Below, in pieces: positions 1,197 to 51,646 of a stretch of DNA of 64,000 nucleotides (positions within the stretch are counted from its first letter, which is position 1; every line of letters starts with the position of its first letter). The notes beneath the pieces are model-generated. The model was not told the origin of the DNA, made no database searches, and saw nothing but the letters and a program-made list of their open reading frames with translations. A program made the translations under genes and the position numbers. The DNA is from Escherichia coli (GTDB lineage: Bacteria; Pseudomonadota; Gammaproteobacteria; Enterobacterales; Enterobacteriaceae). The stretch is from assembly GCF_046105845.1 (NCBI RefSeq), contig NZ_CP151004.1. One strand, 5' to 3'.

Positions 1197-2669
1197 ATGG
1201 TACCTGTGGTCGCGCTTGTCGGGCGCCCTAACGTAGGAAAATCCACGTTATTTAACCGTCTAACTCGCACCCGAGATGCGCTGGTTGCGGATTTCCCGGG
1301 TCTGACTCGTGACCGTAAGTACGGTCGTGCAGAAATTGAAGGCCGTGAGTTTATCTGCATTGATACCGGCGGGATTGATGGTACAGAAGACGGTGTAGAA
1401 ACCCGTATGGCGGAACAGTCGCTGCTGGCGATTGAAGAAGCGGACGTCGTACTGTTTATGGTGGATGCGCGCGCGGGCCTGATGCCGGCGGATGAAGCGA
1501 TTGCCAAACATCTGCGCTCCCGTGAAAAACCGACCTTCCTGGTGGCAAACAAAACTGACGGTCTGGATCCCGATCAGGCAGTGGTTGATTTCTACTCGCT
1601 TGGTTTAGGTGAAATCTACCCGATCGCCGCGTCTCACGGTCGTGGCGTATTAAGTCTGCTGGAGCACGTGCTGCTGCCGTGGATGGAAGATCTCGCACCG
1701 CAAGAAGAAGTCGACGAAGACGCTGAATACTGGGCGCAATTTGAAGCGGAAGAGAACGGCGAAGAAGAAGAGGAAGACGACTTCGACCCGCAAAGTCTGC
1801 CAATCAAACTGGCGATTGTGGGTCGTCCGAACGTAGGTAAGTCTACACTCACTAACCGTATTCTTGGTGAAGAGCGCGTTGTTGTTTACGACATGCCTGG
1901 CACTACGCGTGACAGTATCTACATTCCAATGGAACGCGACGGACGTGAGTATGTGCTCATTGACACCGCTGGCGTACGTAAACGCGGCAAAATCACCGAT
2001 GCTGTAGAGAAGTTCTCGGTAATCAAAACGTTGCAGGCCATTGAAGATGCCAACGTGGTGATGTTGGTGATTGATGCGCGCGAAGGTATTTCCGATCAGG
2101 ATCTCTCCCTGCTGGGCTTTATTCTCAATAGTGGGCGCTCACTTGTCATTGTAGTGAATAAGTGGGATGGCCTGAGCCAGGAAGTGAAAGAGCAGGTGAA
2201 AGAAACGCTGGACTTCCGTCTGGGCTTTATCGATTTTGCTCGTGTGCACTTTATCTCAGCCTTGCACGGCAGTGGTGTTGGTAATCTGTTTGAATCAGTA
2301 CGTGAAGCGTATGACAGCTCCACCCGTCGTGTGGGGACCTCTATGCTGACGCGCATCATGACGATGGCTGTTGAAGATCACCAGCCGCCGCTGGTACGTG
2401 GTCGTCGTGTGAAGCTGAAATATGCCCACGCTGGTGGTTATAACCCGCCGATTGTGGTGATTCACGGTAACCAGGTGAAAGACCTGCCTGATTCCTACAA
2501 GCGTTACTTGATGAACTACTTCCGCAAATCGCTGGACGTAATGGGATCGCCGATTCGTATTCAGTTCAAAGAAGGGGAAAACCCGTATGCGAACAAGCGT
2601 AACACCCTGACGCCAACCCAGATGCGTAAACGTAAGCGTCTGATGAAGCACATCAAGAAAAATAAATAA
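1197..2669 (+). CDS. der: Ribosome-associated GTPase Der/EngA (tandem GTPase domains)
   Basis: Two G1 motifs GRPNVGKST; start MVPVVALVG at ATG 1197; 490 aa. Confidence 0.95.
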
Positions 2670-2690
2670 TTATCCGTAAGTATTTTATCT

Positions 2691-2722
2691 GCCATTCCCT
2701 CTATGAATGTAGAGGGAATGGC
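2691..2722. other. 13-bp perfect inverted repeat (gccattccctcta N6 tagagggaatggc) between der and yfgJ
   Basis: Read directly; no adjacent U-tract. Confidence 0.5.
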
Positions 2723-2738
2723 TACCGGAGGAATTCAT

Positions 2739-4351
<1,613 letters not shown>

Positions 4352-11210: not shown

Positions 11211-11443
11211 CTTCTTTGAATAACCGCTTTTGGACGAAAGTCCCTTGTGGAGTGCAAGTTGTCAGTCTAAAAGCGTTTTGCGTCAGGCGACACGATCAGT
11301 ACAGCTCCCAGGTTTTCTTACCATGGTATTTTGTGTGGTATCGACATGCAAATATAATGCTATTCTATTGATTTTACAGTGTTTTAAGGCGGCATTAATC
11401 ATCGAGTGGGAATGATTTGACCCTGCACTATGAATGAACAAAA

Positions 11444-11469
11444 CCCTCTGTTACTACAGAGGGTTTTTT
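11444..11469 (+). terminator. Rho-independent terminator between the convergent DUF262 operon and yfgI
   Basis: ccctctg ttacta cagaggg followed by tttttt; A-run on the other side makes it partly bidirectional. Confidence 0.65.
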
Positions 11470-11507
11470 ATCTTCAAGAATTATAGGCTTGAAGTTACTT
11501 ACATCGA

Positions 11508-46529: not shown

Positions 46530-48545
46530 ATGGCTGAACTGACTGCGCTTCACACATTAACAGCGCAAATGAAACGTGAAGGGATCCGCCGCTTGCTGGT
46601 GTTGAGCGGGGAAGAGGGTTGGTGTTTTGATCATGCGCTTAAGTTGCGTGATGCTTTACCTGGCGACTGGCTGTGGATTTCGCCGCAGCCAGTCGCTGAA
46701 AACCACTGTTTTCCCTCGGCGCTACAAACTTTACTTGGGCGCGAGTTCCGGCATGCGGTATTCGACGCCCGCCACGGCTTTGATGCCGCTGCCTTTGCGG
46801 CACTTAGCGGAACGTTGAAAGCGGGAAGCTGGCTGGTTTTGTTACTCCCTGTATGGGAAGAGTGGGAAAACCAACCTGATGCCGACTCGCTGCGCTGGAG
46901 TGATTGCCCTGACCCTATTGCGACGCCGCATTTTGTCCAGCATCTCAAACGCGTACTTACGGCGGATAACGACGCTATTCTCTGGCGGCAAAACCAGCCG
47001 TTCTCGTTGGCGCATTTTACTCCCCGTACTGACTGGCACCCCGCGACCGGCACACCACAACCAGAACAACAGCAACTCTTACAGCAGTTACTGACCATGC
47101 CGCCGGGCGTGGCAGCGGTAACGGCTGCGCGTGGGCGCGGTAAATCGGCGTTGGCAGGGCAACTCATTTCTCGTATTGCGGGCAGTGCGATTGTCACCGC
47201 GCCCGCAAAAGCGGCAACGGATGTACTGGCACAATTTGCGGGCGAGAAGTTTCGCTTTATTGCACCGGATGCCTTGTTAGCCAGCGATGAGCAAGCCGAC
47301 TGGCTGGTGGTCGATGAAGCCGCAGCCATACCTGCGTCGTTGTTGCATCAACTGGTATCGCGTTTTCCTCGAACGTTGTTAACCACTACGGTGCAGGGCT
47401 ACGAAGGTACCGGACGTGGTTTTTTGCTGAAATTTTGCGCTCGCTTTCCGCATTTACACCGTTTTGAATTGCAACAGCCGATCCGCTGGGCACAGGGATG
47501 CCCGCTGGAAAAAATGGTTAGTAATGCACTGGTTTTTGACGATGAAAACTTCACCCATACACCACAAGGCAATATCGTCATTTCCGCATTTGAACAGACG
47601 TTATGGCGAAGCGATCCAGAAACGCCGTTAAAGGTTTATCAGTTATTGTCTGGCGCGCACTACCGGACCTCGCCGCTGGATTTACGCCGTATGATGGATG
47701 CACCAGGGCAACATTTTTTACAGGCGGCTGGCGACAACGAGATTGCCGGAGCGCTGTGGCTGGTGGATGAGGGCGGATTATCTCAAGAACTCAGTCAGGC
47801 GGTATGGGCAGGTTTTCGTCGCCCGCGGGGTAATCTGGTGGCCCAGTCGCTGGCGGCGCACGGCAGCAATCCACTGGCAGCGACATTGCGTGGACGGCGG
47901 GTAAGCCGGATAGTAGTTCATCCGGCGCGTCAGCGGGAAGGCACAGGGCGGCAACTGATTGCTGGTGCTTTGCAATATACGCAAGGCCTCGACTATCTTT
48001 CGGTGAGTTTTGGTTACACCGGGGAATTATGGCGTTTCTGGCAACGCTGCGGATTTGTGCTGGTGCGAATGGGTAATCATCGTGAAGCCAGCAGCGGTTG
48101 CTATACGGCGATGGCACTGTTACCGATGAGTGATGCGGGTAAACAGCTGGCTGAACGTGAGCATTACCGTTTACGTCGCGATGCGCAAGCTCTCGCGCAG
48201 TGGAATGGCGAAACGCTCCCTGTTGATCCACTAAACGATGCCGTCCTTTCTGACGACGACTGGCTTGAACTGGCCGGTTTTGCTTTCGCTCATCGTCCGC
48301 TATTAACATCGTTAGGTTGCTTAATGCGTCTGTTACAAACCAGCGAACTGGCATTACCGGCGCTGCGTGGGCGTTTACAGAAAAACGCCAGTGACGCGCA
48401 GTTATGTACCACACTTAAACTTTCAGGCCGTAAGCTGTTACTGGTCCGTCAACGCGAAGAAGCTGCGCAGGCGCTGTTCGCACTTAATGATGTTCGCACT
48501 GAGCGTTTGCGCGATTGCATAACGCAATGGCAATTTTTTCACTGA
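46530..48545 (+). CDS. tmcA: tRNA(Met) cytidine acetyltransferase TmcA
   Basis: 671 aa; helicase-like Walker A GRGKSA plus GNAT domain. Confidence 0.93.
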   Translation: MAELTALHTLTAQMKREGIRRLLVLSGEEGWCFDHALKLRDALPGDWLWISPQPVAENHCFPSALQTLLGREFRHAVFDARHGFDAAAFAALSGTLKAGSWLVLLLPVWEEWENQPDADSLRWSDCPDPIATPHFVQHLKRVLTADNDAILWRQNQPFSLAHFTPRTDWHPATGTPQPEQQQLLQQLLTMPPGVAAVTAARGRGKSALAGQLISRIAGSAIVTAPAKAATDVLAQFAGEKFRFIAPDALLASDEQADWLVVDEAAAIPASLLHQLVSRFPRTLLTTTVQGYEGTGRGFLLKFCARFPHLHRFELQQPIRWAQGCPLEKMVSNALVFDDENFTHTPQGNIVISAFEQTLWRSDPETPLKVYQLLSGAHYRTSPLDLRRMMDAPGQHFLQAAGDNEIAGALWLVDEGGLSQELSQAVWAGFRRPRGNLVAQSLAAHGSNPLAATLRGRRVSRIVVHPARQREGTGRQLIAGALQYTQGLDYLSVSFGYTGELWRFWQRCGFVLVRMGNHREASSGCYTAMALLPMSDAGKQLAEREHYRLRRDAQALAQWNGETLPVDPLNDAVLSDDDWLELAGFAFAHRPLLTSLGCLMRLLQTSELALPALRGRLQKNASDAQLCTTLKLSGRKLLLVRQREEAAQALFALNDVRTERLRDCITQWQFFH

Positions 48546-51553: not shown

Positions 51554-51618
51554 TTCCTGAGACAAAGTACAAACAGCAAGAACCCGCTGAGCAGGTTCTT
51601 AATCGGAAAGTTGAAAAA

Positions 51619-51646
51619 GGCGACACATTGGCATGTCGCCTTTTTT
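51619..51646. terminator. Bidirectional rho-independent terminator between ypfM and acrD
   Basis: ggcgaca cattggca tgtcgcc flanked by A-run and T-run. Confidence 0.6.

Follow-up and report, generated by a model that had tools for sequence, protein, structure and literature searches.

The question raised by this locus is what a long perfect palindrome does in the 69-nt spacer between der (stop codon 2667–2669) and yfgJ (ATG 2739–2741) of Escherichia coli: whether it ends transcription, structures or stabilises an RNA, or is bound as DNA by a protein. The upstream gene codes for an essential ribosome-assembly GTPase, the downstream one for a small zinc-ribbon protein. All positions given here refer to the window, by which we mean the whole stretch of 64,000 nt that was analysed; the relevant features are compiled in Table 1.

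A single long palindrome in the der-yfgJ spacer

In a first-pass annotation, made from the sequence alone, the element had been described as a 13-bp perfect inverted repeat around six central nucleotides, lacking a U-tract and unusually long for its place between der and yfgJ. This description is accurate. The arms GCCATTCCCTCTA and TAGAGGGAATGGC are complementary at 13 out of 13 positions and enclose the 6-nt loop TGAATG. No second inverted repeat with 13 or more perfectly matched bp and a loop of 3–30 nt exists in the 64-kb window, and only 0.01–0.03 of them would be expected by chance (a mean of 0.013 in mononucleotide shuffles of the window, two out of 150 of which had one; 0.027 by analytic calculation). 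The palindrome is real and non-random. Its sequence occurs a single time within the window, and a permissive search of Rfam 15 returned matches at chance level only (mir-4716, scoring 14.7 bits where the threshold is 76, with E 8.7).

The hairpin starts 22 nt 3' of the der stop codon and ends 4 nt 5' of the yfgJ Shine-Dalgarno (SD) sequence, 17 nt before the yfgJ start. Folding of a 101-nt region gave -32.6 kcal/mol for the sense strand (z -4.5) and -31.1 kcal/mol for the antisense strand (z -4.6), and the hairpin by itself -23.8 and -22.4 kcal/mol, respectively. Seven of the 13 pairs are G·C, and the fold of the sense strand adds U2704·G2709 as a predicted 14th pair that closes the loop. As at a terminator, there is thus a stable G+C-containing stem-loop soon after a stop codon, with a stem of 13–14 bp. 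The U-tract is missing. The 10 nt 3' of the stem, TACCGGAGGA, hold a single T, which makes one U in the 8 nt after the stem (tail UACCGGAG), where a U-tract would have about five or more. The flanks UAUUUUAUCU and UACCGGAGGA show no U-run after the stem on either strand and, reading both strands directly, we saw neither a U-rich tail nor an upstream A-tract. A terminator scan of positions 2300–3200 yielded no match.

The yfgJ frame is also open from an ATG at 2703, in the hairpin loop, which would give an ORF of 83 aa (2703–2954). Some database entries list YfgJ with 97–104 aa, for which wrong start calls or tags are the probable cause.

Table 1. Features at the der-yfgJ-xseA locus (window positions)
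Feature	Position	Strand	Remarks and source
der (engA) CDS	1197..2669	+	
Rho termination region, xseA-sense	2633	-	K-12 2635920 (+), score 11.2; PMC7815308 Supplementary file 2
Antisense RNA 3' termini peak	2679..2690	-	PMC10687069 Supplementary Data 2 and 3
Palindrome forming RNA hairpin	2691..2722		5' arm 2691-2703, loop 2704-2709, 3' arm 2710-2722
Sense RNA 3' termini peak 'der Primary'	2722..2740	+	PMC10687069 Supplementary Data 2 and 3
yfgJ	2727..2954	+	SD GGAGG 2727-2731, CDS 2739-2954; double zinc ribbon, PF07191
xseA	2951..4321	-	convergent with yfgJ, 4-nt overlap
der-yfgJ read-through transcript end	3018..3043	+	'yfgJ Primary' 3' terminus and Rho region

RNA 3' ends and transcription across the hairpin

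Mapping of RNA 3' ends had been suggested as a check, and maps published for strain K-12 place the hairpin at the 3' end of der. Over the first 6 kb the window is 97.15% identical to K-12 without indels, and the coordinate map was checked; the hairpin corresponds to K-12 2635831–2635862. The terminus listed as 'der Primary' has its dominant positions at K-12 2635825 and 2635822 (PMC10687069), that is at window 2728 and 2731, 6–9 nt past the stem and within the SD sequence of yfgJ. Three data sets of that study contain it: its own RNAtag-seq in LB, the RNAtag-seq of Barsheshet and an additional annotated sheet, which by sheet order is probably the re-analysis of the Dar and Sorek Term-seq data. 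The 3' ends that Adams et al. (PMC7815308) curated from Term-seq under three conditions include none in the der-yfgJ spacer, so the der 3' end is of moderate strength and not among the strongest ones. The supplements of SMRT-Cappable-seq contain no mention of the locus.

RNA 3' ends accumulate on the opposite strand, too. The dominant antisense terminus is K-12 2635869 (+), equal to window 2684, which lies 7 nt past the stem on the xseA-sense strand; it comes from ligation-based libraries, in which palindromes can yield strand artefacts, and its one independent support is a coverage drop in DirectRNA-seq.

Transcription does not stop at the hairpin. Read starts have a density of about 0.53 in der, compared to about 0.37 in yfgJ (PMC10687069), so the RNA signal of yfgJ amounts to about 70% of that of der, with a drop of about 30% across the hairpin. 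No transcriptional start site is recorded within 150 nt of the hairpin in the TRS table of PMC10687069, and a promoter scan for yfgJ found no promoter-like site on the + strand. From the signals of the two genes and the lack of a start site within these 150 nt, it follows that yfgJ is most likely transcribed by read-through. The missing U-tract and the continuation of transcription into yfgJ thus bear out the first-pass argument against a simple intrinsic terminator.

Rho-dependent termination occurs on both strands around yfgJ. On the xseA-sense strand, coverage at K-12 2635920 (+) drops from 259 to 26 in untreated cells; with bicyclomycin the corresponding values are 472 and 533 (Adams et al. 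2021, PMC7815308). This region lies 51 nt past the antisense terminus, a distance to be read against the 800-nt windows used in the published data. On the strand of der, a 3' terminus listed as 'yfgJ Primary' maps to K-12 2635527, i.e. window 3026 (PMC10687069), and a Rho region with a score of 3.8 follows just past it at K-12 2635510 (-), window 3043 (PMC7815308). The nearest Rho region on the sense strand (again in 800-nt windows) is thus located about 300 nt from the hairpin, after yfgJ and not at the hairpin itself, and the role of Rho in forming the der terminus can therefore be indirect at best. A rut-like excess of C over G was not found in the 150 nt downstream on either strand (31 C and 32 G antisense, 33 C and 37 G sense).

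The genes xseA and yfgJ form an overlapping convergent pair (PMC12288877). At 2951–2954 and 2633–3043, the transcripts of yfgJ and xseA are each reportedly terminated by Rho within the antisense region of the other. Since both Rho stops lie in the opposite antisense regions, the whole yfgJ gene is transcribed from both strands.

Two alleles of the hairpin within E. coli

The spacer was compared among 5426 complete E. coli genomes. The K-12 type of spacer is present in 3666 of them, and the exact 44-nt sequence with the perfect palindrome in 1539 (about 28%). Judged from an evenly spaced sample, one A of the 3' arm is missing in about 1400 genomes, so that a U bulges out, and in about 700 genomes, O157:H7 among them, the same deletion is combined with an A-to-G exchange that creates a U·G pair. 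The 44-nt hairpin region is found at a median of one place per E. coli genome.

An alternative allele, comprising the spacer plus the 5' half of yfgJ, is present in 1714 of the 5426 genomes. A 13-bp hairpin of its own, GGTTTCCCTTTCC-ACAC-GGAAAGGGAAACC, occupies the homologous position. By direct reading, the stems of the two alleles have the core UUCCCU/AGGGAA in common and differ at five stem positions, each of them changed on both sides. All polymorphisms in the alternative stem are either A/G opposite U or C/T opposite G. Such changes keep the pairing in the sense RNA and break it in the antisense RNA or in the dyad of the DNA.

The dimorphism spans window positions 2670–2850 (loci L001–L003 and L091–L095), and the alternative allele always goes together with a sinH-sinI island 3' of yfgJ. 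The alternative YfgJ protein has 65% identity overall, with a divergent first half and a nearly identical C-terminal half; the K-12-type YfgJ has its closest counterpart in Pseudocitrobacter (73–76%). Expression of yfgJ is reported to vary among isolates in association with upstream k-mers (bioRxiv 10.1101/2025.06.10.658842). Two single strains deviate from both alleles or from the usual context. E. coli HS-02 has a third, recombinant-looking spacer, with a 5' arm similar to the alternative and a 3' arm similar to the K-12 type, and its yfgJ is frameshifted. E. coli M114 carries a G-to-A change in the loop, has two matching places in its genome and lacks a der annotation 5' of the spacer.

Conservation among the Enterobacteriaceae

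The comparison set consisted of 80 der loci from different species of Enterobacteriaceae and six yfgJ loci. Wherever yfgJ lies less than 70 nt from der, the spacer has a stable hairpin, the sequence of which varies between genera. This holds for Escherichia, the Citrobacter amalonaticus group, Trabulsiella, Pseudocitrobacter, Phytobacter, Atlantibacter, Siccibacter and Cronobacter. For the quantitative analysis 22 short der-yfgJ spacers were used, from Escherichia, Citrobacter, Trabulsiella, Pseudocitrobacter, Phytobacter, Atlantibacter and Siccibacter, leaving out Cronobacter. All 22 fold better than their dinucleotide shuffles (mean z -3.5), and in 19 of them the sense strand gives a more stable fold than its complement. 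RNAalifold recovered the inner 9 bp from an unbiased MAFFT alignment. Over the inner 10 pairs, 99.1% of the cells are paired, compared to at most 74% in slid controls, and three pairs show double-sided changes. The covariation score of 0.255 exceeds that of the shuffles (0.149) and was reached by none out of 500. The first-pass annotation would have been contradicted by a plain hairpin at the der 3' end that is not conserved beyond E. coli. The first half of this is what the published 3' ends indicate; the second half does not apply, as the hairpin is kept at the same position in six other genera.

The presence of a U-run after the hairpin goes with the distance of yfgJ. Among 58 lineages without an adjacent yfgJ, at least 43 have a U-run and thereby a textbook terminator after der, with a GC stem and 5–9 U. 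This count is conservative because automated calling misses canonical terminators whose A-tract pairs with the U-tract. Where the yfgJ ATG is less than 70 nt away, a U-run was found in 3 of 19 lineages, namely in Cronobacter, Atlantibacter and one borderline Pseudocitrobacter. The association has a Fisher p of 1.8e-5, which overstates the independence of the lineages since these are phylogenetically related. In Cronobacter condimenti (L097, 1951–2000) the der-yfgJ hairpin is followed by UCUGUUUUU and in Atlantibacter (L049) by UUUUGU, though yfgJ starts within less than 50 nt in both.

Other arrangements occur at larger distances. Kosakonia, Enterobacter sp. Bisph1 and Klebsiella aerogenes, with yfgJ at 84–116 nt, have a full der terminator and, between it and yfgJ, a -10-like box. 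Where yfgJ comes after another gene, in Raoultella and Enterobacter mori, the 50-nt spacer upstream of it has no hairpin; thus the hairpin belongs to the 3' end of der and not to yfgJ. The extra gene between der and yfgJ in Raoultella, Enterobacter and relatives (L099, 860–2000; L101, 916–2000; also several loci without an adjacent yfgJ) codes for a GFO_IDH_MocA-like oxidoreductase or is an unannotated ORF of 363 aa, and der has a full terminator there. Finally, the 88-nt der-yfgJ spacer of Salmonella enterica subsp. arizonae and diarizonae (L009, 3880–3909; L010) holds a palindrome of the REP family, for which an E. coli genome has a median of 24 matching places.

A probable protective 3'-end hairpin without U-tract

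From these results, we think it probable that the palindrome encodes a leaky stem-loop which defines and protects RNA 3' ends, as in the class described by Dar and Sorek (2018), with exonuclease trimming as the origin of these ends. Members of this class are stable stem-loops without a U-rich tail, located directly 5' of precise steady-state 3' ends, which protect Rho-terminated transcripts from PNPase and RNase II (PMC6061677). Of the two functions that had been put forward initially, an RNA processing or stability element is the one favoured by the comparative data together with the published 3' ends. The class is known, and the hairpin is a fairly ordinary, hitherto undescribed case of it; published supplementary tables already contain its termini.

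The proposed course of events is the following. The palindrome is transcribed within the der-yfgJ mRNA and folds into a stable stem-loop of 13–14 bp. For lack of a U-tract it is not an efficient intrinsic terminator; RNA polymerase largely continues to yfgJ, and the read-through transcript ends by Rho-dependent termination about 70–90 nt past yfgJ. The 3'-to-5' exonucleases PNPase and RNase II would then degrade the yfgJ part of the longer transcripts and stall 6–9 nt from the base of the stem. In this way the hairpin, which marks the main steady-state 3' end of the der mRNA, would leave a capped, more stable der message, favouring der over yfgJ; some hairpin-induced termination may add to the der 3' ends. 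Since the K-12-type sequence is a palindrome, the hairpin forms in the RNA of the opposite strand as well. There, read-through from xseA runs antisense across yfgJ to the hairpin, and the same structure would cap this transcript, which is presumably terminated by Rho just past it. Of this, the structure, its preserved pairing in the sense RNA, the 3' ends mapped on the two strands, the Rho regions and the link between a missing U-run and a nearby yfgJ are observations; the trimming by exonucleases and the consequences for the stability of the der, yfgJ and xseA messages and for their expression ratio are what we infer.

Several features agree with the class of Dar and Sorek. The stable stem-loop is directly 5' of precise 3' ends on both strands (6–9 nt in sense, 7 nt in antisense), it has neither a U-rich tail nor an upstream A-tract, and on the xseA-sense strand a region strongly sensitive to bicyclomycin follows just past the hairpin. 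The fit to the class is good for the xseA-sense strand. However, on the der-sense strand the hairpin is intercistronic, with a translated gene beginning 17 nt further on and the Rho stop about 300 nt away. Unlike the members of this class, the der-yfgJ hairpin serves both strands and shows no excess of C over G downstream.

The element can also be compared to other hairpins. With the canonical intrinsic terminator that follows der in most Enterobacteriaceae without an adjacent yfgJ, it shares the position and the 3' ends 6–9 nt past the stem, and its stem length and folding energy are similar; it differs by the lack of a U-tract, by a stem richer in A/U and by substantial read-through into yfgJ. 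REP elements reportedly serve as intercistronic mRNA stabilisers, for instance at malE-malF, as Newbury et al. are said to have found in 1987. By analogy, the der-yfgJ hairpin would be such an intercistronic palindrome without U-tract, blocking 3' exonucleases and favouring the upstream cistron. REP and BIME elements are present in dozens to hundreds of copies per genome with a common consensus, whereas the hairpin of E. coli has one copy and lacks the REP consensus. Bidirectional terminators between convergent genes have reportedly been described by Ju, Li & Liu in 2019 (Nat Microbiol 4:1907), and one hairpin with RNA 3' ends on both strands is reminiscent of these. However, the der-yfgJ hairpin has no flanking A-tract and U-tract, it lies between co-directional genes, and the xseA transcript, which is Rho-dependent, reaches it only after crossing all of yfgJ.

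A more far-reaching version appears possible to us, but rather improbable as a whole. According to it, the one palindrome would be a two-strand 3'-end cap for the convergent, Rho-terminated transcripts of der and xseA, the latter with a 3' UTR of 267 nt that is antisense to all of yfgJ, and yfgJ would be expressed by read-through only and under antisense interference. The natural replacement of the spacer and the 5' half of yfgJ in about one third of the strains, linked to the sinH island that moves xseA away, would rewire this arrangement and underlie the differences in yfgJ expression among isolates (bioRxiv 10.1101/2025.06.10.658842). As a separate matter, selection for use on two strands, with perfect Watson-Crick pairing favoured where xseA converges directly, was considered and dropped: the energy difference between sense and antisense does not separate loci with a directly converging xseA from the others.

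Alternative explanations

A weak and leaky intrinsic terminator would account for the same 3' ends if the hairpin released a fraction of the polymerases 6–9 nt downstream while the rest reached yfgJ. This distance is as found at intrinsic terminators, the hairpin sits exactly at the site of the canonical der terminator of other Enterobacteriaceae, and the RNA signal drops by about 30% across it. However, E. coli RNA polymerase needs a U-tract for efficient hairpin-dependent release, and here the stem is followed by a single U in 8 nt and no terminator pattern was found. Moreover, 3'-end hairpins without U have been ascribed to protection from exonucleases (PMC6061677). We regard termination of this kind as the main cause of the ends as doubtful. 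An element in the 5' UTR of yfgJ acting on translation is unlikely. It would consist of a longer helix topped by the hairpin, pairing 2673–2690 with 2727–2743 and thereby the SD sequence and the AUG, and would couple yfgJ translation to ribosomes finishing der. Such a helix would begin 4 nt after the der stop codon, and in folds of 90, 151 and 251 nt of the K-12-type allele the start region of yfgJ is indeed predicted to be paired (probability of being unpaired 0.17–0.18 for the SD sequence and 0.00–0.03 for the AUG). However, shuffled 5' flanks reached an equally low energy in 127 out of 500 cases and an equally low SD-AUG accessibility in 25 out of 500; the lower stem is missing in the alternative allele and in other genera; and no hairpin precedes yfgJ where it follows another gene or has its own promoter. 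Pairing of the 5' arm as an anti-SD with the yfgJ SD sequence was also looked at by eye; it gives 7 out of 8 pairs in the K-12-type allele only and not in the alternative one, and was rejected.

The other function initially envisaged, a DNA palindrome bound by a dimeric protein as an operator, has its perfect dyad symmetry with a 6-bp centre in its favour and nothing else, and we give it very little credence. Between the two E. coli alleles both partners of the pair are exchanged at 5 of the 13 stem positions, and the stems of Pseudocitrobacter and Phytobacter are unrelated; about 25% of the genomes have a 1-nt deletion in one arm; and the polymorphisms keep RNA pairing by means of U·G, which breaks the symmetry of the DNA. 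A protein-binding site does not agree with a stem whose sequence is replaced between alleles and genera while its pairing is kept, with U·G pairs that are valid in the sense RNA only. Comparative sequence analysis thus argues firmly that the hairpin acts as RNA and not as a protein-binding DNA site. It is also unlikely that the structure is a functionless relic, be it a decayed der terminator or a harmless palindrome kept perfect by template-switch (quasi-palindrome) mutation. Template switching can create seemingly compensatory changes in a single step, and the perfect form is restricted to the minority of E. coli genomes mentioned above. On the other hand, the hairpin persists with different sequences in seven genera, all folding better than shuffles, the wobble bias towards the sense strand is not expected from a mutational process at the DNA level, and RNA 3' ends accumulate at the hairpin.

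Implications and further hairpins in the window

If the protective 3'-end hairpin is the correct reading, it probably lets the cell keep a defined and protected der message while passing a reduced amount of transcription on to yfgJ. The site after der offers a comparative series in which a full terminator, a terminator with a promoter, a hairpin without U and a REP element are found at one and the same place. This series is a natural illustration of how the presence or loss of a U-run goes with a hairpin that ends a transcription unit or lets transcription pass. For annotation, it is advisable to check for covariation before long perfect palindromes are called operator sites. The practical impact is modest; of most interest among the by-products are the comparative series and the existence of two alleles in E. 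coli.

Some further hairpins were seen in the window. Between bamB and der, at 1099–1131, a canonical terminator GAAAACGGCTCC...GGGGCCGTTTTCCTGTTTTT is located 66 nt 5' of the der start, and a strong Term-seq 3' end has been mapped to it at K-12 2637422 under all three conditions (Adams et al., PMC7815308); it looks like an attenuator ahead of an essential gene. Inverted repeats of the hairpin type are also present at 11431–11476, 46663–46696 and 51614–51645. By its appearance, the one at 11431–11476 is an ordinary terminator, and the one at 51614–51645, AAAAAGGCGACA / TGTCGCCTTTTT, has flanking A- and T-runs as in a bidirectional terminator.
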